Shown in pieces: positions 3 to 10,264 of a stretch of 10,264 bases of DNA (position 1 is its first letter; the number at the start of each line of letters is the position of its first letter). Source of the stretch: Chlamydiia bacterium (GTDB lineage Bacteria; Chlamydiota; Chlamydiia; Chlamydiales; RGXB01); contig JBEIFH010000033.1 in assembly GCA_040382515.1 (NCBI GenBank), positions 1-10,264 of the forward strand. The letters are read 5' to 3'. A program made the position numbers and the translations under genes. A model generated the notes under the pieces. That model made no database searches. It was not told the DNA's origin and worked only from the letters and a program-made list of their open reading frames with translations.

Positions 3-176
3 CCGATAGATTTAGTGGTAGTAGGGTCGGTGCATCGCGTTCCTTTAGGTTGGATCAAATATTTAGAAAAAAATAAATTCAAGGTCGCCTATATCTGTGG
101 AGAGGATTTTCATGTTTGTCCGTTTCATTCGTTTCAAACCCTATTTATTCGGGAATATTCCTCGTTAGGAATCTAA
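3..176 (+). CDS. 3' end of an upstream gene (partial), probably glycosyltransferase-associated hypothetical protein
   Basis: Frame 3 is open from the window edge to TAA at 174-176: PIDLVVVGSVHRVPLGWIKYLEKNKFKVAYICGEDFHVCPFHSFQTLFIREYSSLGI*. It is absent from the ORF track. The DLVVxGSVHR...CGED...FIRE pattern looks protein-like, and the strand matches the downstream cluster. Confidence 0.65.
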   Translation, partial: PIDLVVVGSVHRVPLGWIKYLEKNKFKVAYICGEDFHVCPFHSFQTLFIREYSSLGI

Positions 177-181
177 AATTT

Positions 182-233: not shown

Positions 234-899
234 ATGACAAAATATTTACTCTCCCGTTTACCCGGCATATTGTTGGTATTCGGTTTTTTGATAATAATTC
301 ATCATTACCAACTCAGTGTTTTTCCTCTCAAAGAAAACAGCGGAGCTCCTTTTTTTCGCTCCGAGATAAAAAATTTCGATATTTTTTTGATCTCTTCTGA
401 GGAAAAACCGGTCAAAGCAGAGCTCATAGAGTCTTTGATTCATCAAAAAGGGGTGCAGGTCAAAGTCCATCTTTTGGATGCAACCGAGCATAAGGAGGTG
501 TACCCTCTTGAGAAAATACAGTACAGAAAAGTGGATCCTAAAGATGTTTTAGCAGTTTTCCACAGCATTGTCCTGGCGCTGGACCCGGCGCATGTCTTGG
601 TCTTTATTGAACCGGTCGAAAAAAATATCCACCCCTATTTGCTTTACAAAATCAGACATCTTTTTGAACACCGGGATGTCAAAGCGGTTTATACTGACAA
701 AAAAATGAAACCCACCCAGCATCGACTTGGTTGGGAAAGGGCGAATATAAAAGCATACCAAGCGAGTCTCGCCCAGCAGATAAATATGGAGAAAATAAGA
801 ACCTTTGAAGACTACCATCAAGGGATTTTATTCCTTACGGCTGAGAATTTCCTTTTTTCAACAAAAGTTCTCGACCCTGAGCCGGAGATGGAAGATTGA
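234..899 (+). CDS. Membrane-anchored, degenerate GT2-like (GT-A fold) protein
   Basis: 221-aa ORF with an N-terminal hydrophobic segment (GILLVFGFLIII). FDIFLIS...LIESLIHQK...VKVHLLDAT echoes the GT2 start (FVIVIPxYN...SxxxQxY...VIxIDDxS). VLVFIEPVEKNIHPYLL sits where LDxDD normally lies. Confidence 0.5.
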   Translation: MTKYLLSRLPGILLVFGFLIIIHHYQLSVFPLKENSGAPFFRSEIKNFDIFLISSEEKPVKAELIESLIHQKGVQVKVHLLDATEHKEVYPLEKIQYRKVDPKDVLAVFHSIVLALDPAHVLVFIEPVEKNIHPYLLYKIRHLFEHRDVKAVYTDKKMKPTQHRLGWERANIKAYQASLAQQINMEKIRTFEDYHQGILFLTAENFLFSTKVLDPEPEMED

Positions 900-930
900 T
901 CCACAATTACAAATATTTTTAGGGGAGAGG

Positions 931-2013
931 ATGCGTATAAAGAATATTGTCCATTTGTTATTCCTTTCGTTCAGTTTACCGTTGATCTCTGTTGGAGTCG
1001 ATTTTTTAGTTCCGCACAAAAAGTTTTTAGATCCAAAAGTCCTTGAACAAAAGGATCTTTTAAACCCCAAAGTTATCTCGATAGATATACCTGATTTTCC
1101 CGGGGCTTATAATCCTGCGTTGATCGAACATTTAGAGGGGTATCTCCTTTTTTTTCGTTATGATGTGCCATTAGAGCATATCTATAAAAAAACGAAGTTT
1201 CACTATATGACCTACATAGGCTTCGTCTATTTGGATTGCGATTTCAAGGTCGATTCAGAGGTGAAATTTCTCAATCTGAACAACCCCTACTGTGAAGATC
1301 CCCGTGTATTTCGGTTCGACGATAAAATAGTCGTGTTCTTCAATACAATAGAGTCGCTTGATCCCACCTCAAGGACTATGAAGATGGCTTTTATAGACCC
1401 GGACACCGGTGAGGTGGAATACGTATGTAAGTTACCTGGCAAAAGAAAGAATCTAGAGAAAAATTGGACCCCTTTTGTGCGCAATGAAGGGGGAAAATCG
1501 AGCCTCTACTTTGTGTATGACTACCATACACTGGAAGTTGTCGAATTGAACAAAATTGATGCGGTATGGCAAATCTCAAGCACGAAAACAAATCCACTCT
1601 TAGGGCCGGACTATTTGGAGTGGAAAGAAAGGTGGGGCCCCTATAGAGGGGGAGCTCCGCTGATCGAGATTGACGATGAGATTTTCTGTTTTACCCATTC
1701 TTGTTTTGAAGAGACAGTAAACATATGGGGAATAGATCGTAGAAATTACTACTACCATGCGGGGCTGTTCACCCTCTCAAGCGATTTGTCAACACCCTTG
1801 AAATTACTACCAAATCCGATTTTATATGAAGGCGCCTATGATTCACCCCGTAAAAGATCTCCGAACAAGTGGGTCATTTATCCAACCGGGGCCGTTTATA
1901 AGCCTCAAAGCGGAAAAATTTATCTCTCTTTAGGTGAAAATGATGGAAAAATTAGAATCTTGGAATTTGATAAAAATCGTTTAATCAGTCAATTGACCCC
2001 TTTTCAAAAGTAA
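931..2013 (+). CDS. Exported five-bladed beta-propeller glycoside hydrolase/phosphorylase/transferase (GH130/GT91-like), paralog 1
   Basis: Start re-assigned to ATG 931, preceded by AGGGGAGAGG at 921-930, which avoids a 95-bp overlap. Leader MRIKNIVHLLFLSFSLPLISVG. Motifs AYNP, EDPR, EKNWTPF, RGGAP, VIYPTGA, GENDGKI. Confidence 0.75.
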   Translation: MRIKNIVHLLFLSFSLPLISVGVDFLVPHKKFLDPKVLEQKDLLNPKVISIDIPDFPGAYNPALIEHLEGYLLFFRYDVPLEHIYKKTKFHYMTYIGFVYLDCDFKVDSEVKFLNLNNPYCEDPRVFRFDDKIVVFFNTIESLDPTSRTMKMAFIDPDTGEVEYVCKLPGKRKNLEKNWTPFVRNEGGKSSLYFVYDYHTLEVVELNKIDAVWQISSTKTNPLLGPDYLEWKERWGPYRGGAPLIEIDDEIFCFTHSCFEETVNIWGIDRRNYYYHAGLFTLSSDLSTPLKLLPNPILYEGAYDSPRKRSPNKWVIYPTGAVYKPQSGKIYLSLGENDGKIRILEFDKNRLISQLTPFQK

Positions 2014-2027
2014 CAAAAAGAATTTCC

Positions 2028-3152
2028 ATGCTTTTTCCCCTATTTTCCGCTTTCTTAAGCCTATCTATATCTATTGTGGGCACCATCGATAAAAGGGATG
2101 GTATCGGACGGCAGTCGATTGAACTTGGCATGGGTCTCAAAAAAGAGTTCAATGTACAGGTTGTCCCTTTTGGAACCTATGAGGACCTAACAAGGGAGGA
2201 GGAGTCGCTGCTTGAGACCGATATGAGGAACCTGCACCCCCTTGTTTTGTTGAACACCTCTTTACCGGAGGTCCCTTATATGGTCGAGGTTTTGAAGAGA
2301 TACAAAAGAGCGGATCAGAGATATGTTGTTTATACGATGCATGAATCGGACTTTGTTGATCCCCATTTTGTGAAATACTTGAATTTTTTTGATGCTGTTT
2401 TAGTCCCTGACCCCTTTTTGGTCGAGGTTTTTCAAAAGAGCGGGGTGTCTTCCCCGATTGAGGTGATCCCGCTTGCGGTAGACTTGGAAATTTTTTTATC
2501 GCAACCATTAAAAAAAAAGATCCACAAACCGTTTGTTTTTGGGAATTTTTCGAGCATAATAGCTAGAAAAGATCAGATGGTCCTTTTAAAAGCGTTTTCA
2601 GATGCATTTAAAAATAATCCGGATGTCCAGTTAATCCTGGCCCCAAGAGGGGGAGATCGCCGCTGTATTCGGGAGTTGGAGGAAGAAATTTTAAAAAATC
2701 AGTTGCAAAATGTGAAATTTAAAATTGAATCTAAGGCCAAGGGTAATTACTTAAGGGCATTTCAAGCTGTCGATTGCTACGTCTCTCCTTCATGGGGAGA
2801 GGGGTTCAGCATCCAACCAAGAGAGGCAATGGCTTTGGGGATCCCTGTTATTGTATCAGCTAATTCGGGGCAAAAAACAATAGCTGAGTCGGGGCTCGTC
2901 TTTTCTTTGAGAAAATCTTCCCCGATAAAAGCCGAATATTCCTGCATGTTAAACAGTTTTAGCATGGGAAAAATGTATCAATCGGATAGAGAAGAACTCA
3001 GCACTCTTTTGAGGGCAATTTACGACAACAAAGAGCAAATTTTAAAGGAGAATTCCCACCTTCGTGAATGGGCTTCCAGGTATGACATTCAAAAAGGTCC
3101 GTTTTTGGAACAATTTAAGGAATTTTTCATAAGGAACTATGGAGATCATTAA
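2028..3152 (+). CDS. GT4 family (GT-B fold) glycosyltransferase
   Basis: 374 aa with ARKDQ (RK motif), DCYVSPSWGEGFSIQPREAMALGIPVIVS (EX7E signature) and YTMHES. Hydrophobic N-terminus. Confidence 0.88.
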   Translation: MLFPLFSAFLSLSISIVGTIDKRDGIGRQSIELGMGLKKEFNVQVVPFGTYEDLTREEESLLETDMRNLHPLVLLNTSLPEVPYMVEVLKRYKRADQRYVVYTMHESDFVDPHFVKYLNFFDAVLVPDPFLVEVFQKSGVSSPIEVIPLAVDLEIFLSQPLKKKIHKPFVFGNFSSIIARKDQMVLLKAFSDAFKNNPDVQLILAPRGGDRRCIRELEEEILKNQLQNVKFKIESKAKGNYLRAFQAVDCYVSPSWGEGFSIQPREAMALGIPVIVSANSGQKTIAESGLVFSLRKSSPIKAEYSCMLNSFSMGKMYQSDREELSTLLRAIYDNKEQILKENSHLREWASRYDIQKGPFLEQFKEFFIRNYGDH

Positions 3153-4233
3153 GAACGCACTTCTGGCACTTTTTTTTTCTACTGGTTTTTTCCCTTTGCT
3201 TTTTTCTATCAGTATACGTTCTGATAGCCCATTTCTCACCACCAAGGACTGTTTAGAAGCCAATAGCGCGATAGGCTGGGAGGTGCATTCACTATCGATC
3301 CCTTCTTTCCCTAATGCTTACAATCCCTCTATTGTCGCATGGGAAGGGGAGTTTCTCCTTTTTTTTCGGTACGACGAAAAAAGGGAGCATTTATTCAACT
3401 CAAAGAAGATTGAAGCGCTTACCTACATCGGGGTAGCAAGGCTTAGCAAAGACCTAAAAAAAATCGGGCCGGTTAAAATCCTGAACCTCATGAGCTCCTA
3501 TGCAGAGGATCCTAGAGCTATCCTTTGGAAGGGGAAGGTGGCAATTTTTTATAATGATCTCATTTTTGGGGAATCACTTGAGAGGAAGATGAAGGTTGCC
3601 GTTCTAGACCCCAAAACGCTCAAGATAGACGCTATTTACCCCCTTCCTAGCGCTAAAAAAGGGACCGAAAAAAACTGGACCCCACTGATTTTTGAAGAAA
3701 AGGGGGACGAGTTAGGATTTGTGTACAGTTTTGATGATCTTTCCCTTTATAAAATGGACTTTATTGATGACGAGGTGACTGTGCGCTCTCTTGGGTACAA
3801 TCGGCTCAAAAATTTCCCTCTTTACTGGGCGCGCCGCTATGGTCTTTTGAGAGGTGGTGCCCCGGCATTTTTTGCAGAGAAGAGATATTGGGCTTTTTTC
3901 CACTCCATGCATAAAGTAAAAACGCCAGTAGATGCGGACAAATTTCTTAAAGAGTATTACTACCTCCCGGGGCTGGTCACCTTTGTTGTGTCCCCGTCGA
4001 TTGAGATGCTCGAAATAAGCTCGTACCCTATTTTGTACGAGGGGGCTTTTGATACTACTAAGACCCGCTGCTTCGAAAAAAATGTCATCTACCCGAGCGG
4101 ATGTGTGTATGATCCTGAATCAGGCGAAGTTATTTTAACCGTTGGAGAAAACGATAGCGGAATCAAAATTCTCAAGACAAAGTTGGATCGACTCAAAAGC
4201 TCCTTAAAAAAGGTTTCAAAGTGCGCTATTTAA
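3139..4233 (+). CDS. Exported five-bladed beta-propeller (GH130/GT91-like), paralog 2
   Basis: 364 aa with a hydrophobic leader. Shares FPxAYNP, LLFFRYD, TYIG, EDPR, EKNWTP, RGGAP, PILYEGAxD, VIYPxG and GENDxxI with 931..2013. Overlaps the GT4 stop by 14 bp. Confidence 0.78.
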   Translation: MEIIKNALLALFFSTGFFPLLFSISIRSDSPFLTTKDCLEANSAIGWEVHSLSIPSFPNAYNPSIVAWEGEFLLFFRYDEKREHLFNSKKIEALTYIGVARLSKDLKKIGPVKILNLMSSYAEDPRAILWKGKVAIFYNDLIFGESLERKMKVAVLDPKTLKIDAIYPLPSAKKGTEKNWTPLIFEEKGDELGFVYSFDDLSLYKMDFIDDEVTVRSLGYNRLKNFPLYWARRYGLLRGGAPAFFAEKRYWAFFHSMHKVKTPVDADKFLKEYYYLPGLVTFVVSPSIEMLEISSYPILYEGAFDTTKTRCFEKNVIYPSGCVYDPESGEVILTVGENDSGIKILKTKLDRLKSSLKKVSKCAI

Positions 4234-4835
4234 TATTTATATTCTTATCTGTTTTCACCTGGATCTCCCTCAATTCTGTTGAGCCAAAGACGCACAGAAT
4301 TTTGGGTTGGGTTCCTTATATGGAGGTTTTATCGAAAAATCTATCTGACAAAAATCCCCGATTTGACCGAGATATCCACCTTTTATTTGCCGATCTCATG
4401 AAGCTAAAAGTTGTAGAAAAGATTGTAGTCTATGGAAGTTCAGCACAGATGTATCCGGTTTTAGGGGCTTATTATTTGCGCTATTTTGGAAGGGGAAAAT
4501 TGTACCATCGCCCTTTTTTGGAAAAAGAACAGGAAAAAAATCTTTTGTCCCAAATACAACGTTATTTGAAAAGTTATGTCCTAGAGAAATTTGTGTCAGA
4601 GGAGAAAATGGGCCCTTTAGAGACAAATATCGAGATCGTCGTGATTGACTTTTCAAAAAAAAAGGGGGATTTTGATGCAATTTTCATGGAGTGCAAGCCC
4701 CATTTGTCTAAAAATGCCCTGTTTTGGGTACATTCAGGCAAAGGGCAGATTTTAGAGCTGGAGAAATACGGTCTAAAAAAAATAGAGATCTACTCGTTTG
4801 AGAAGGACTTTCCGGTAGCACTCTATAGCCTTTAA
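4221..4835 (+). CDS. Hypothetical exported protein, degenerate class I SAM-methyltransferase-like (Methyltransf_24-like)
   Basis: GTG start overlapping the upstream stop by 13 bp. Leader MRYLIFIFLSVFTWISLNS. Motif order KIVVYGSS / IEIVVIDFS / PHLSKNALFWVH parallels VEIGxxxG / IDxxHIDG / PxLxxGGxxxxxD. Confidence 0.5.
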   Translation: MRYLIFIFLSVFTWISLNSVEPKTHRILGWVPYMEVLSKNLSDKNPRFDRDIHLLFADLMKLKVVEKIVVYGSSAQMYPVLGAYYLRYFGRGKLYHRPFLEKEQEKNLLSQIQRYLKSYVLEKFVSEEKMGPLETNIEIVVIDFSKKKGDFDAIFMECKPHLSKNALFWVHSGKGQILELEKYGLKKIEIYSFEKDFPVALYSL

Positions 4836-4839
4836 ATCC

Positions 4840-4876
4840 AAAAAAGGCCCCTAAATTCCTCATCGTTATTTAGGGG
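4840..4876 (-). terminator. Intrinsic terminator between convergent genes (serves ugd)
   Basis: Inverted repeat CCCCTAAAT (4848-4856) / ATTTAGGGG (4868-4876) with an 11-nt loop. A6 at 4840-4845 gives a U-tract on the - strand just after the ugd stop. Confidence 0.6.
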
Positions 4877-4887
4877 AAAGAAGAGAT

Positions 4888-6294
4888 TTAAAAACGGTCT
4901 ATTTTTTTACCGATCTGGATACATTCAAAGCTAGCTTCGTTCATAATCACAGGGTCGAGGAGGTTTCTACAATCAAAAAACAGATTCCCTTTAGTCAAAA
5001 GGCGTCCTTTTGTCCAATCGAATTCAAGAAACTCTTTCCAAGGGGTAGCAAGTAAAACCGCGTCTACACCCTCTAGAGCCTCGATAAGAGATGCTTTGAC
5101 CTCAAAATTTTGGGAATCATTTCGAACATTAGTACCGGCGATAGGATCGTAGGCCTGGATAAAAGCCCCCTTTTTGATCATAATCTCCATCAACTTCAGT
5201 GCTGGGGATGCGCGCACATCGTCGGTTTCTTCTTTGAAAGCAAGACCAAGCAAAGCGATTTTTTTCCCTTCAAAACTGCCTAGCATTGTTTCCAGACGAT
5301 CCACTATTTTTGAGGGGCGGAAGTCATTTACATCAACAGCCGCTTGAATTACATTGAGCGAGGTTCCGTTTTTTTCTGCAGCTTTTAAAAATGCAAGGGT
5401 GTCTTTAGGAAAGCAAGATCCGCCAAATCCTGGACCCGGTTTCAGGAACTGCGCACCTATCCGTTTGTCAAGTCCGATACCCATCGCGACTTCATCCACA
5501 TCTGCCCCAACCAATTCGCAAAAATCTGCGATTTCGTTGATAAATGAGATTTTGACCGATAAAAAAGAATTAGAAGCGTATTTTATCATCTCAGCCGATG
5601 CGATGGAGGTAGAGAGAAATTTAGCCCCTTTTTGGAGAATAGGAGCGACTATTTTTTTAAACAAGGATGCAGTATCGGAATTTTCGGCGCCAATGACTAC
5701 CCTGTCCGGATTCATGAAATCATAGACCGAGGAGCCTTCACGCAAAAATTCGGGCGCATACCCTATTTCAAAAGGGGTATTGAAATGATTATGGTTAGTG
5801 ATAATCTCTTTGATCTTTTGGACACTCCCCATAGGAACGGTGCTTTTGACAAAAATAGTTTTAGGATTGTTTAGATTTTTTCCAATTGTCTGAGCAGTGT
5901 CAAAAACAAAATCAAGGTTGGCCTCCCCGTTAAATGACTCAGGGGTTCCGACCGTAATAAAAATGATGTCATTGGACTGTATTGCTTTGGCGACTTCGGT
6001 GGTGAAAAAGAGTCTGTTTTGATGCAGGTTTTTAGTGACCAACTCCTCCAAACCATGTTCGTAAATAGGTATCAAACCATTGTTCAAAGAATGAATTTTT
6101 CGGGTATCAAGATCACAACAGGTAACCGTATGGCCAATTTCTGCCAAACAAGTTCCAAGAACCAACCCCACGTACCCTGTTCCTACGACACCGATTTTAT
6201 AAGAATGAGTGTCAGATGCAAACCCTTTTGATGTAAGTATTGTAGTAAAAAAAACAAAAAAGCAAAAAAAGCGAGAATAAAATAGAATGTGCAT
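4888..6294 (-). CDS. ugd: UDP-glucose/GDP-mannose 6-dehydrogenase family protein with N-terminal signal-like extension
   Basis: GTGYVG Rossmann motif, KSTVP, PEFLREG, KYASNSFL (catalytic Lys), GPGFGGSCFPKD (catalytic Cys) and GLAFKEETDDVRASP. AAGGA lies 7 nt upstream of ATG 6294. Confidence 0.95.
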   Translation of the reverse strand: MHILFYSRFFCFFVFFTTILTSKGFASDTHSYKIGVVGTGYVGLVLGTCLAEIGHTVTCCDLDTRKIHSLNNGLIPIYEHGLEELVTKNLHQNRLFFTTEVAKAIQSNDIIFITVGTPESFNGEANLDFVFDTAQTIGKNLNNPKTIFVKSTVPMGSVQKIKEIITNHNHFNTPFEIGYAPEFLREGSSVYDFMNPDRVVIGAENSDTASLFKKIVAPILQKGAKFLSTSIASAEMIKYASNSFLSVKISFINEIADFCELVGADVDEVAMGIGLDKRIGAQFLKPGPGFGGSCFPKDTLAFLKAAEKNGTSLNVIQAAVDVNDFRPSKIVDRLETMLGSFEGKKIALLGLAFKEETDDVRASPALKLMEIMIKKGAFIQAYDPIAGTNVRNDSQNFEVKASLIEALEGVDAVLLATPWKEFLEFDWTKGRLLTKGNLFFDCRNLLDPVIMNEASFECIQIGKKIDRF

Positions 6295-6393
6295 GAGGAA
6301 ATCCTTAGCAGTTAATCGATTTGATGATAGTCTAAAACAATCTTAAATTTAAAACATTTTAGCCATTTTAATTAAATAAGTTTTGAATCTGCT
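6295..6393. promoter_or_regulatory. Divergent AT-rich promoter region between ugd and the GT31-like pair
   Basis: 99-bp intergenic gap between divergent starts. Candidate + strand TTGATG(6321-6326)-N17-TAAATT(6344-6349). Confidence 0.4.
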
Positions 6394-7200
6394 GTGAATT
6401 TAATCTCTCGATTATTAATTTTTATCCTTTTGAAATGGAATCTTTGTGCAGAGACTACCTCTGACAGCCCCATAGCAAAGAAAAATCTTGTTCTCATCAT
6501 ATCGAGCAGTCAATTGCCCGTTTTTAATGTACATAAAGCCTCATGGAGAAAATATATGCACAAATTCTCCACTGATTTTGAGTGCTACTTCATAGAATTT
6601 GATCCTGAACTGGAACAGGACTATTTTGTAGATGGGGATATTTTAAAAATCCGGGGCGTGGAGTCTTATATTCCAGGAATTTTCGACAAGACAATACTAG
6701 CACTTGCGTACTTTGAAAAAAGATTTTCTGAATTCGCCTTCATCATTAGGCCGAATCTATCTTCTTTTATCTATTTTCCGGCTTTAAAGAGGTTCCTCGA
6801 GAGTCAAAATAAAGAGCGATTTTACTCCGGAAATCGCTCACTATATCAAAATTACGAAAATAATGAGGGAGACCATCTGATTTTTGGGCATGGAGCCTGT
6901 GTAGTGTTCTCAAGAGATCTAGCAAATACGCTCTTAGAAAAAAAGGGTCAGTATATGCAATTGCCTTACTCCAAATTTCATGCGGACGACCTTCTTTTTG
7001 GGTTAATTTTCAAAAAGGAGGGGATACCATTCGTCCCATTCCAAAGCTTTTATATTGAAAAAAACATAGACCCATACAAGATTTTTGGATGTATACCAAA
7101 AGATACATTTCATTTTAGGGTGAAAGTCTCTACAGGTGAGGATCGGCTTTTTAAAGAGAAGGTGATACATAATAAATTGTATGAAATCTATTATGAATAA
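6394..7200 (+). CDS. GT31/Fringe-like (GT-A) glycosyltransferase, paralog 1
   Basis: GTG start and leader MNLISRLLIFILLKWNLCA. Motifs ESY...KTILAL, FIIRPNLSSF, FYSG, GHGACVVFSRDLA and DDLLFG follow the GT31 order K(T)...KxDDD...YxG...SGxGyxxSxD...EDvxxG. Confidence 0.62.
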   Translation: MNLISRLLIFILLKWNLCAETTSDSPIAKKNLVLIISSSQLPVFNVHKASWRKYMHKFSTDFECYFIEFDPELEQDYFVDGDILKIRGVESYIPGIFDKTILALAYFEKRFSEFAFIIRPNLSSFIYFPALKRFLESQNKERFYSGNRSLYQNYENNEGDHLIFGHGACVVFSRDLANTLLEKKGQYMQLPYSKFHADDLLFGLIFKKEGIPFVPFQSFYIEKNIDPYKIFGCIPKDTFHFRVKVSTGEDRLFKEKVIHNKLYEIYYE

Positions 7201-7972
7201 TCTTCTTGCACTCTGTCTATTTTTTTTTCCTCTTTACGGAATGAGCCAAACAAACTTAAGAAAGGGAAAAAATCTTGTTTTGCTCTTCTCATCCGAAGAG
7301 GGATTGAGAGAAAAGATCTTTAAAAATTTTTGGCTCAAGATGCTGGATGCCGAATCCGACGATTTTGACTATGTATTCATAAAAAAAAATCGGGACTTGG
7401 AGGGGGAAGCGGGTGTATTTTCGGATAAATACCTATCCGATAGCCCGATTGGAGCCTCTTTGAAAAGAGAGGTTAATTTGCATAGCGTTTTAAAAAATAT
7501 CGGCCCGCAGCTTGACGCATACGATTACGTGATAAAAGTTGAACTGGATACTATCCTGATTTTCTCAAGACTAAAGAAAATCCTCGAGAAATCTCCCTTG
7601 GAAAAACTTTACCTTGGAAATGTTTCTTTTAAAAAGTTCGGTCTTGATACAATCCCGTATGTCCATGGCGCGTGTATGATTTTTTCTAAGGATCTAGCAA
7701 AGCTATACTTGGAACAAGATAGGTTTACAGGGGATTTTGAAGAGGAGGGATGTGATGAGGACTGTTTTTTCGGAAGGTGGATGCATGTTCATGATATCAG
7801 ACCTGTTCCTATTCCAAGTTTACGTTTAGACAATTATTACAAACCGATTAGATTTTATAAAACTTTACCTGAGTTTTTTTTTGAATTTAATATTCAAATG
7901 ACTTTAAGAAAAAAATCGCGTTATTATTATGAAAAATGTTTTGCTGAAGAACTTTTAGAAATTTTTTCCTGA
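7181..7972 (+). CDS. GT31/Fringe-like glycosyltransferase, paralog 2
   Basis: Start at ATG 7181 or 7193 (ATGAATAA overlapping the upstream stop). Leader NNLLALCLFFFPLYG. Motifs KNLVLLFSS, YDYVIKVELDT, LYLG, HGACMIFSKDLA and DEDCFFG are co-linear with 6394..7200. Confidence 0.62.
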   Translation: MKSIMNNLLALCLFFFPLYGMSQTNLRKGKNLVLLFSSEEGLREKIFKNFWLKMLDAESDDFDYVFIKKNRDLEGEAGVFSDKYLSDSPIGASLKREVNLHSVLKNIGPQLDAYDYVIKVELDTILIFSRLKKILEKSPLEKLYLGNVSFKKFGLDTIPYVHGACMIFSKDLAKLYLEQDRFTGDFEEEGCDEDCFFGRWMHVHDIRPVPIPSLRLDNYYKPIRFYKTLPEFFFEFNIQMTLRKKSRYYYEKCFAEELLEIFS

Positions 7973-8029
7973 AATAGATATAAAAATTAAACTAAATAAA
8001 AATAATGCCCTTACTTCTTTTGAAGAAAA

Positions 8030-8866
8030 ACGTTTAAGCGTTCTAGAAAAATAATTTTATTCATAGCTTTATTCTTTTTTATCCCGTTGTTGCTAGGGGC
8101 TAAAATTGCGGGTGTAACCTTGGTTGTCGGCGACTCCTACAAAAAGACTATGGAGATCCCTTAAAAAAACAAATTTCTTTACTGCGAAAAATTCTTCTAT
8201 GATCTTTTTGTGGGGGATAAAAGAACACATGATCGGGAGTTTTTTCAGTGGGAAAAAATAAAAATTCTGTCAAAAATCATGGAAGACATCTCCTATGACT
8301 GGGTTTTTGGACCGATGCAGATGCGATGTTTATGAATTTTTCGATTGCTCTAGAGCAGTTCATAGACGACGATGCTCTTCTCATTATTTCAAATGATTAC
8401 AAAGGTTGAACAACGGTCACTTTTTGATTAAAAATTTTCCCGAATCAAGAGATTTTATGAAAAATGTGTGGAACAGAGTCGATTGCATTCGGGGGGTAAT
8501 GAGGAGCAGGTAGCTATGGAAAAAGAGATTTTTTAAAATCCTCTATTTTCAAAAAAAACCAAGTTTATTCCGCAGATGATGGTCAACTCTTTTTCAAAAG
8601 AGAGTTTTCACCATTTCAGTGTCTGTTATGAAAAAGGGCTCTACCAACCAAAAGATTTCATCGTCCATCTTGTAGGTTTGCACGATCCGGTTTTTTTGAC
8701 TGAGAAATTTGCCTTTTTTGAAAAACAGGTGGAATCGTCCCCTTTGGATTATCTCCATTTTCTCTCCTTTTACGGCAAAAAAAAGCGGGTTAAAAATAAC
8801 CCTTATGTCACCAGTTTTTTAGAAAATCAATGCCCGGAAATTATTGGATCTACACCAGATACTTGA
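8030..8866 (+). pseudogene. Disrupted GT34 (GMA12/MNN10-like galactosyl/mannosyl-transferase) gene
   Basis: Reconstructed across frames: (T)FKRSRKIILFIALFFFIPLLLGAKIAGVTLVVGDSYKKTMEIP*KNKFLYCEK..YD..WEKIKIL..YDWVF/WTDADAMFMN..IISNDYKG/LNNGHFLIKN..W..RG/GNEEQVAM..IF*NP..IPQMMVNSF..YQPKDFIVHLVG. It has the GT34 hallmarks WxK, WxDxD, LNxGxFxxxN, EQ and DFxxH. Lesions: TAA 8162, -1 at T5 8304-8308, -1 at about 8405, -1 at G6 8491-8496, TAA 8534. Confidence 0.82.
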
Positions 8867-9233
8867 AGGGGTAGAGGAGATCTATTTTTTACAAAAGGAT
8901 CTTGGTTTCCTGGCAGGTGTTATGCAGCCTTTTTTGAAAGAAACTATCTTTTATATTTTAGAGGAATTGATAGCACCTCATCCATAATTTCCGACTATTT
9001 TCGACTTAAAAAAACAAAACAAACTTTGAAAGGTTTTACTGGGTTTGAGGGCTTGGCGCCCTGCTGAAGTCAAAAAAGAAAAAACTGATTTTTTGTCTGG
9101 ATGAGAGGCATTTCATATAAAAATTCCCCTTCTTTGAAGGGTCTCTTAAAGAAAGAAATTTGAAGATCATTTTTACATCTAAAAATAAAAAACGGGAGTT
9201 AGACCTGTTTTTTTCAAAAAAAAATATACCGGT

Positions 9234-9263
9234 AAAAATCTACCCCCTTGAGAAGGGGGAGAT
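9234..9263 (-). terminator. Intrinsic terminator of uvrD
   Basis: ATCT-a-CCCCCTT-gag-AAGGGGG-AGAT hairpin (9238-9263) 12 nt past the uvrD stop. The A-run at 9234-9238 gives a U-tract on the - strand. Confidence 0.65.
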
Positions 9264-9275
9264 GTATTTCGTCGT

Positions 9276-10264
9276 TTAAAAGGGCCGTTTTTTGATTTCC
9301 AGATGTGCAAAAGGGAGCTCTTCAAAAAAGCGACTCTTTTTCATGGGCCTCGAGGTTCCCCATAAGAAGCGATAGGCTGTGAAGGTAAGGGTGAGCTTGC
9401 GCTCAGCGCGGGTCATTCCTACGTAGAGCAGACGCCGCTCCTCTTCCAAATCAGGAAGTTCAAGCTTCGAATTGATGTGGGGCAGGATATCCTCTTCCAG
9501 ACCGCATATGTAACATGTGTGGAACTCAAGCCCTTTAGAATTGTGGAGCGTCATTAAAAATAGTTTCGGGTCCATGGAGTGCGCCTCATCAAAACTTTGA
9601 CGTAAAGAGAGCTCTTCGAGGAATTGCACCACAGTCAGTTCCGGATTTTCCTCTTCCCACTCAATAGCTTTTGCAATTAAAGCTTCCACGTTCTCTTTTC
9701 TATCTTGGTAGGTCTCTTTGTCCTCTTTGAGATAGTCAAGGTAGGATGTTTCCTTCAATATTTTCTGCAATTTTTGCGCAATTGAGGAGATTCCCCCCGC
9801 ACTATTCAGGATATAGGTAAATTTATCCAGTTCTTGCTTTTGTTTCGAAGAAAGGGGGAGATTGCGTGTATCTTCGAGAATTGTAGCAAAGGGGAGCATG
9901 CTTTGATTCTGGAATTCTTTGATCTTTTCAAAAGCGGCATTTCCAATTCCCCTTTTTGGGACATTGATCACCCTTTGAAAAGCAATGAAGTCATTTTTGG
10001 AAACTGTGAGCCGAAGGTAAGAGAGCAGGTCTTTTACCTCTCTTCGTTCGTAGAAGGAGAGACCCCCAACTATAGTGTAGGGGATGCGCTCTTTCAAAAG
10101 GGCATCCTCCAGGCTCCTGGATTGGGCATTAGTTCTATACAAAAGGGCAATAGTAGAAGGGTCTTGTCCCCGATCGATCGCATAGCTTACATCGCGAGCT
10201 ATAAATTGCGCCTCCTCCCTTTCATCAAAAAAAGGGCGCACCTGGATTTTTTCCCCATCCCCCA
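9276..10264 (-). CDS. uvrD: UvrD/PcrA superfamily 1 DNA helicase, C-terminal part (5' end outside window)
   Basis: ALLYRTNAQSR, GGLSFYERREVKD, NVPKRGIG, LMTLHNSKGLEF (motif V) and EEERRLLYVGMTRA (motif VI). The frame stays open from 10241 to the window edge. Confidence 0.95.
   Translation of the reverse strand, partial: GDGEKIQVRPFFDEREEAQFIARDVSYAIDRGQDPSTIALLYRTNAQSRSLEDALLKERIPYTIVGGLSFYERREVKDLLSYLRLTVSKNDFIAFQRVINVPKRGIGNAAFEKIKEFQNQSMLPFATILEDTRNLPLSSKQKQELDKFTYILNSAGGISSIAQKLQKILKETSYLDYLKEDKETYQDRKENVEALIAKAIEWEEENPELTVVQFLEELSLRQSFDEAHSMDPKLFLMTLHNSKGLEFHTCYICGLEEDILPHINSKLELPDLEEERRLLYVGMTRAERKLTLTFTAYRFLWGTSRPMKKSRFFEELPFAHLEIKKRPF

Follow-up and report, generated by a model that had tools for sequence, protein, structure and literature searches.

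In which compartment do the enzymes of a chlamydial glycosylation locus work when their genes open with hydrophobic leaders? The question is raised by a stretch of 10,264 nucleotides (the window) on contig C33 (JBEIFH010000033.1) of genome G000 (GCA_040382515.1), the assembly of an uncultured member of the Chlamydiota (1.39 Mb in 46 contigs, 92.65% complete). An initial annotation had described nine enzyme genes there, each with a signal-peptide-like leader, and had placed glycan assembly outside the cytoplasm. The leaders were found to be real and non-random, and a place of work outside the cytoplasm, whether in the periplasm or beyond it, is quite probable. The specific form favored here, a Sec-exported glycosylation line that would need no lipid carrier, would likely be periplasmic, and would be fed by host nucleotides, was given about an even chance. 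The named runs containing window DNA are lake, freshwater, aquatic, and wetland metagenomes; one RNA run also contains it (share, 0.05).

Leaders were scored by the best uncharged 9-mer starting within the first 15 residues, with a threshold mean hydropathy of at least 2.0. This score was reached by 156 of the 776 soluble open reading frames (ORFs) of at least 150 amino acids (aa) in G000, compared with 2.9% of 3,880 internal control positions. Seven of the eight intact window genes reached it, g7 being the exception (genes are numbered as in Table 1), and the binomial P value of 9e-5 overstates the case because the window genes are co-transcribed and include two paralog pairs. A survey of homologous loci, which the initial annotation had named as a check, bore the leaders out, as they recur in all seven genomes of the genus (G000 to G006). 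These genomes are 72 to 97% complete, so that an absence among them means "not found." Genes g1 to g5 and ugd are syntenic in all six other genus genomes. In g2, g4, g5, g7, and g8, as in Ugd, the leader diverges faster than the mature domain, while g1 shows the reverse. By the heuristic, the n-, h-, and c-regions of a Sec/signal peptidase I substrate occur at the true start and before the folded domain in g2, g4, g5, ugd, and g8, and weakly in g3 and g7.

The best case for export in the window is Ugd. A single match, the sole copy found, was obtained in G000, with three Pfam domains and a strong match to PDB 4a7p (6e-112). The motifs GTGYVG (position 38), PEFLREG (181), and FGGSCFPKD (290) are intact, which suggests a catalytically intact enzyme. 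No other ATG, GTG, or TTG lies between the leader and the Rossmann strand of the window protein. The leader was present in all six complete genus copies, and in the four distant ones only 5 to 6 of its 22 residues were identical, compared with 58 to 63% of the mature part. In the other families, 45 chlamydial genomes had a Ugd match; with G007, G044, G055, G059, and weaker matches left out, a clear leader was found on none of 43 loci from 41 genomes, one (L146) being ambiguous. Among the 120 best database matches, 15 carried a hydrophobic leader, nine of them genus-like and six others, one named "Candidatus Dependentiae." A FastTree phylogeny of 105 rows was built with the leaders removed and included 40 of the 104 leaderless database matches. 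All 21 leader-bearing rows fell into one 23-row branch (SH-like support, 93), apart from 41 of the 43 other chlamydial rows; the branch also holds a truncated genus row and a leaderless long-branch row. A single origin of the leader is possible on this tree, short of demonstration.

Table 1. Features of the window, with positions counted from its first nucleotide
Feature	Position	Strand	Description
Tenth gene, 3' end	3..177	+	Cut by contig start; 95% identity over 56 aa to the G002 ortholog L032:4218-5141
g1, 221 aa	234..899	+	Conserved hydrophobic N-terminus, likely an anchor that stays uncleaved; weak GT2-like fold lead
g2, 360 aa	931..2013	+	Leader and five-bladed beta-propeller, GH130/GT108/GT91 group
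g3, 374 aa, GT4	2028..3152	+	Pfam PF00534 (7e-15); intact EX7E; short leader
g4, 364 aa, g2 paralog	3139..4233	+	Leader; Pfam BMT (0.0016); start overlaps g3 stop
g5, 204 aa	4221..4835	+	Leader; GTG start overlapping g4 stop; Methyltransf_24-like fold lead
ugd, 468 aa, UDP-glucose 6-dehydrogenase	4888..6294	-	Pfam and NCBIfam matches
Ugd leader, about 26 residues	6217..6294	-	Predicted cleavage site after a ...KGFA motif
g7, 268 aa, GT31-like	6394..7200	+	Weak leader; RPNLSS in place of the canonical DxD
g8, 259 aa, g7 paralog	7193..7972	+	Leader; start overlaps g7 stop
g9, broken GT34 gene	8030..9273	+	Pseudogene in this strain
uvrD/pcrA, 3' part	9276..10264	-	Flank without leader, outside the system; Pfam/NCBIfam matches

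For the propellers, g2 passed the Pfam BMT cut-off (2.9e-7), and its AF2 model (pLDDT, 92.6) gave Foldseek matches to GH130 (1e-11) and Leishmania MTP (4e-10). Both g2 and g4 resemble the GH130/GT108/GT91 proteins in fold and in the EDPR, EKNW, RGG, and HS motifs; they differ in an identity of only 12 to 19% to solved members and in having giant-virus proteins as their best viral-library matches. Across the propeller family, 18 of 36 members matched GH130 and 10 of 36 matched BMT. These two may be of GH130, GT108, or GT91 type, and if they are hydrolases, their leaders would be ordinary. The g7/g8 family profile matched B3GALT6 (1.3e-8) and other GT31 structures, and Galactosyl_T was matched by 41 of 99 members. 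The family consensus RTNLSS aligns to KADDDS/KTDSDM, and because the DxD is missing, g7 and g8 were filed as GT31-like rather than as members of GT31. The g7 ortholog in G004 has a clear leader; the single-sequence fold of g7 (pLDDT, 34.8) was not used. In the seven genus copies of g3, the leader is 12 to 13 residues long (13, with no K/R, in the window) and ends in S/T/A-L-S just before the first strand.

Neither Pfam nor NCBIfam matched g1, g5, g7, or g8 when each was searched singly. For g1, Atlas GT2 clusters (0.90 to 0.91) provide a lead only, and no DxD was seen; for g5, which has leaders in the seven genus copies, the lead is a Methyltransf_24-like Atlas match (0.88). The g1 leader is identical at 16 to 24 of 25 residues among genus copies, compared with 36 to 95% for the mature part, a pattern that would fit an uncleaved anchor. 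The tenth gene, cut by the contig start, has a G002 ortholog of 308 aa that begins with a leader; that protein gave no Pfam or NCBIfam match and no useful PDB match, and showed no similarity to the GT47-like protein. Among the families originally assigned, GT31-like, GT34, and GT4 hold, GT91 has become one option beside GH130 and GT108, and GT2 has shrunk to a weak fold lead for g1. The description of every gene as an enzyme was too broad, as g1 and g5 fall outside any Pfam or NCBIfam family, and it had overlooked the tenth gene.

Eight intact ORFs carry leaders where the initial annotation had reported them, and the ninth gene, g9, is a pseudogene. Three-frame translation revealed several frameshifts and stops in it, and the leader quoted for it has no start codon in that frame. 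The locus had been ended at 8866, but alignment with the intact G002 protein extends the remnant to about 9273. That ortholog has 411 aa, a leader, and matches to PF05637 (5e-25) and XXT1 (2.7e-6). An assembly error was rejected as the source of the breaks because contigs of X6, an independent run from a different study, match this region without a gap and with two substitutions each. In run X5, two indels inside g9 set it apart from the window. The gene appears to be decaying now, being broken here and in X6, different in X5, and intact in G002. A short X5 contig also joins positions ~6394 and ~7947 through 30 other letters; its sides are shorter than 30 bases, and it probably derives from another organism or a repeat.

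The leader trait is not special to the window but runs through the genome and the phylum. A scan covered 181 of the 188 leader-set ORFs of G000 and, among 120 non-leader ORFs drawn at random, 80. False positives made up about a dozen of the 181, their domains starting within 12 residues with a hydrophobic first strand, and known exported families were absent from the 47 annotated proteins among the 80 non-leader ORFs. Twenty further proteins outside the window, picked by hand, have a leader before a glyco- or cofactor-using domain. They include GT2, GT11, GT28, and GT47/RXYLT1-like proteins, two GT4-like proteins, two propellers, and a GT31-like paralog; an RmlB-like dehydratase (score 1.7, below the threshold) with NRS/ER, Adk, an APH-type kinase, and an SDR; and three methyltransferases, a 2OG oxygenase, and two AvrB_AvrC proteins. 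Leader-bearing and leaderless sugar-enzyme sets coexist in G000, the leaderless proteins being a GlgC-like protein, a UAP-like enzyme, the epimerase C20:4463 (HldD by our own reading), and one GT4. Thirty glyco/cofactor leaders (the twenty, the eight window genes, G002 g9, and G005 Uxs) were compared with two other sets. No difference was seen to 26 leaders of G000 proteins from exported families (P, 0.08 to 0.64), and a difference was seen to 11 anchors, both in 19-mer hydrophobicity (P, 1e-4) and in net charge after the core (P, 9e-4); the sets were hand-picked and all preselected by the same score. The Tat motif S/T-RR-x-F-L/I was absent among the leader-set ORFs and TatC was found in none of the seven genus genomes, and Tat export was rejected on these grounds.

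Several of the leader-bearing genes outside the window are neighbors of one another. At G000:C8:26241-29486 (L065), the RmlB-like dehydratase and a plant-type NRS/ER (PDB 4qqr, 2.7e-112), both with leaders, lie beside a propeller paralog. A tandem AvrB_AvrC (Fido) pair with Sec-type leaders is found at G000:C4:24312-26094 (L054:4284-6063), in a genome that also has the leader-bearing UDP-rhamnose pair; AvrB is reported to be a UDP-rhamnose transferase (PMC10866546). The APH/choline-kinase-like protein adjoins the adenylate kinase, both with leaders (G000:C3:5629-7312; L063:5035-6715), and a broken GT2 gene adjoins the leader-bearing GT11 at G000:C13:21641-22319. Three porin-like proteins (G000:C1:43487, C28:12767, and C9:48538, the first of which matches Legionella_OMP) have serine-rich runs right after the leader and are possible O-glycan acceptor candidates; a collagen-like acceptor was not found in G000.

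Across the phylum, 76 of 200 genomes had a propeller match, compared with none of the 28 in the small-genome family f35, and by our reading the neighbors of the propeller gene are often leader-bearing GT- and methyltransferase-like ORFs. The GT4 of the g3 type occurred in 23 of 201 genomes. NRS/ER occurred in 6 of 200, each time with a leader, and its RmlB-like partner had one in all five genomes where it was seen. Leaders were present on Gmd in five of the best 30 loci and on Fcl in two of those five. In G005, a leader-bearing Uxs (L034:2949-3941, plus strand) starts right after the ugd stop, and L239:1330-3559 encodes a nucleotidyltransferase and a HAD-nucleotidyltransferase fusion, both with leaders. 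Of 150 GT31-like matches, 82 had a leader, 23 started at the domain, and 45 were unclear. An x-x-Ala followed the h-region in 48 of 76 GT31-like leaders, compared with a mean of 18.9 and a maximum of 29 in a control that differs from leader regions in composition; 11 of the 76 reached a 19-mer score of 2.0, and 14 had fewer than 19 residues before the domain. One leaderless member lies on one IMG/VR contig, an insufficient basis for a viral assignment of all 23 leaderless members. Anchor extensions of 30 to 42 residues were found on all 18 parsed other-family GT4 homologs, 10 of the 30 GT4 loci giving no row of their own in the parsing. In other-family propellers (L103-L128), a K/R-rich stem comes after a long anchor, which sets them apart from the genus proteins with their short leaders, and topology may differ by lineage.

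The favored reading would connect these enzymes as follows. The leaders are predicted Sec signal peptides that would be cleaved by signal peptidase I, apart from the likely uncleaved anchor of g1. As no Tat system was found, export would be by Sec and in the unfolded state, so that the enzymes would fold and act in the periplasm and would meet NAD+ outside the cytoplasm. Host UDP-glucose (UDP-Glc), GDP-mannose, NAD+, ATP, and S-adenosylmethionine (SAM) would cross porins toward inner-membrane importers and thereby supply the periplasm; because host ATP and SAM must cross this space to reach their importers, we infer usable periplasmic pools. Ugd, which uses NAD+ stoichiometrically, would make UDP-glucuronic acid there, Uxs (in G005) would make UDP-xylose, and the RmlB-like and NRS/ER pair would make UDP-rhamnose. 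The GT4, GT31-like, and GT34 proteins and the propellers would build a surface glycan straight from nucleotide sugars, with g5-like proteins capping it and with envelope proteins or lipopolysaccharide as candidate acceptors. The anchored members (g1 and the 18 other-family GT4s) would stay at the inner membrane, which favors the periplasm.

The machinery of the conventional routes was sought in the same genomes. Bac_transf, the priming transferase, was found in none of the seven genus genomes, ABC2_membrane (Wzm-type) in one, where it contains a stop, and Wzx was not found in G000, in which alone it was searched. No GalU/ManC-type enzyme was found, PF00483 matching only the GlgC-like protein (in six of the seven genus genomes), and MetK was not found in G000. 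Carriers of the NTT and SAM-transporter-like kinds are present; three full TLC carriers were found in G000, as were four genes for EamA proteins, one for NadE, and three for secretins. No nucleotide-sugar transporter, for which a genome-wide search had been proposed at the outset, was identified. In G004 and G006, an EamA gene lies between g5 and ugd (L033:8924-9874 and L037:5630-6589, both on the minus strand). Its product is 31 to 33% identical to the single EamA match in all six f35 genomes, near the range that PMC3104491 gives for homologs of the SAM/S-adenosylhomocysteine transporter; SAM import is described there also. On this identity it is likely a SAM-transporter paralog and was set aside as a nucleotide-sugar exporter.

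A destination farther out was also weighed. Sec export would be followed by type II secretion (T2S), and the enzymes would act in the vacuole lumen or host cytosol, drawing on host nucleotide pools to build a matrix or to modify molecules of the host or the vacuole. This was judged somewhat unlikely. Genes resembling gspD/E/F/G are present, and in five of the seven genus genomes a leader-bearing GT31-like paralog (G000:C1:129522-130328, L218; L219, L220, L222, and L223) comes directly after the second pseudopilin gene, whose stop overlaps the start of the paralog. The paralog could be a substrate of the T2S system or could modify the pseudopilus. The leaders on Adk, the APH-type kinase, the 2OG oxygenase, and the two AvrB_AvrC-family proteins also speak for secretion, and precedents are available in the Sec/T2S substrates that occur in the inclusion lumen (PMC6717882), in the import of UDP-Glc through SLC35D2 (PMC4829429), and in the signal-peptide-bearing Ndk2 of Waddlia (PMC13318545). 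However, the anchored members, g1 and the parsed other-family GT4s, could not leave the inner membrane, and the link to the T2S operon concerns one paralog, is limited to the genus (0 of 14 other-family genomes matched), and may reflect a chance insertion. The host cytosol, moreover, normally has its own UGDH. On another account, quite improbable in our estimate, the leaders would be uncleaved anchors of N-out/C-in topology, holding an ordinary cytoplasmic pathway at the inner face of the membrane. By the positive-inside rule, more K/R after an anchor reads as cytoplasm-facing, and in other families the anchor is succeeded by a K/R-rich stem in 23 of 24 parsed propellers and 7 of 18 parsed GT4s. 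The anchor of WaaA, a cytoplasm-facing protein, is flanked by K/R on either side in G000, and with NadE and a UAP-like enzyme present, cofactors are available to a cytoplasmic pathway. MreC, however, which is periplasmic by family, likewise has more K/R after its anchor in G000. Most genus leaders are too short or too polar to span a membrane, few leaders of the GT31-like set reach the 19-mer score of 2.0, and no flippase or priming transferase was found by which such a pathway would export its product. That the leaders are non-functional extensions or mis-called starts has a very slight chance. One-fifth of soluble ORFs pass the heuristic, some of them falsely, and g9 is decaying. Still, Ugd has no alternative start, three starts in the window overlap the upstream stop, the frames stay open and hydrophobic at divergence to about 25% identity, and none of the 47 annotated non-leader proteins came from a known exported family. 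Conservation has largely refuted this account.

Several observations weigh against the favored periplasmic reading itself. The leader calls come from our own hydrophobicity heuristic and ortholog comparison; the g3 leader is weak (13 residues, no K/R), the hydrophobic core of g7 has 7 residues, and the x-x-Ala control differs in composition. The Ugd branch has a support below 95 and contains a leaderless long-branch row, and g1 and g5 are possibly noncatalytic. The GT31-like paralog inside the T2S operon points beyond the periplasm, while the anchored other-family propellers have a cytoplasm-facing look and the other-family GT4s are divided, with more K/R before the anchor in 9, equal numbers in 2, and more after it in 7 (n = 18). 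The absences are drawn from incomplete genomes, and NadE and the UAP-like uridylyltransferase make cytoplasmic donors possible. Supply is a further difficulty, as no nucleotide-sugar transporter was identified. UDP-Glc is about 566 Da, and NAD+ is about 663 Da. Both lie above the 520-Da cut-off of the Chlamydia trachomatis inclusion given in PMC3104491, so that supply would need a transporter or a cytosolic lifestyle. Assembly outside the cytoplasm, as originally proposed, nevertheless emerged as the best-supported reading, with leaders that recur across orthologs and are mostly too short for a membrane anchor, and with no priming transferase or flippase found in the searches made; the compartment is left at inference.

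The closest precedent for the favored reading is lumenal glycogen in C. trachomatis, which is synthesized in the inclusion lumen from host UDP-Glc by type III-secreted enzymes without signal peptides (Gehre et al. 2016, PMC4829429). If the export reading holds, both cases place chlamydial carbohydrate enzymes outside the bacterial cytoplasm on host UDP-Glc. They differ in that the precedent involves type III secretion and a glycogen product, whereas the window combines leaders of Sec type with GTs of several families and with donor-converting enzymes that depend on NAD(P); with hydrophobic leaders and enzyme families other than Glg, it is not a lumenal glycogen system. The chlamydial Sec/T2S substrates CPAF, CT311, and CT795 (PMC6717882) share signal peptides with the window proteins, as does Waddlia Ndk2, a paralog of a normally cytoplasmic nucleotide enzyme that was localized by heterologous expression (PMC13318545); these are single proteins and constitute no glycan pathway. 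Wzx/Wzy and ABC-transporter pathways likewise cluster ugd and GT genes in a low-GC locus (39.6% for this contig, compared with about 43% in most G000 contigs), but the window enzymes carry leaders, and no priming transferase, Wzx, or Wzm was found.

In eukaryotes, UGDH and the rhamnose and fucose donor enzymes are cytosolic. Here, in contrast, Ugd and the corresponding donor enzymes are tagged. The likeness to endoplasmic reticulum/Golgi glycosylation lies in the same or related families (GT31 B3GALT6/B3GNT2, GT34 XXT1, UXS1, and the yeast Bmt of GT91) and, if the export reading holds, in the use of nucleotide donors in a compartment apart from the cytoplasm. The window differs in its mostly short, apparently cleavable leaders, in the lack of an identified nucleotide-sugar exporter, and in GT31-like proteins without DxD. 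The label "Golgi-like" therefore survives as an analogy, the close relatives seen being of bacterial or giant-virus type. The literature searched, which took in neither most subscription journals nor supplements, yielded no account of a glycan pathway with Sec-tagged enzymes in chlamydiae or Dependentiae.

Bacterial surface glycans are thought to need assembly in the cytoplasm on a lipid carrier, nucleotide sugars and NAD+ being absent outside the cytoplasm. Sec-tagged Ugd, Uxs, Gmd/Fcl, and the rhamnose pair would imply such pools outside the cytoplasm of these intracellular bacteria. For environmental Chlamydiota and Dependentiae as a whole, the odds are put slightly below even that there is a lipid-carrier-free route in which whole pathways, including NAD(P)-dependent donor makers, are Sec-exported to a periplasm fed by the host with nucleotide sugars, NAD+, ATP, and SAM, and which would thus have become a Golgi-like compartment through energy parasitism. 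If true, this would give bacteria a new way of making glycans and would put host metabolism to a new use, and many unannotated exported proteins of uncultured chlamydiae, those of the propeller family included, would gain a function.

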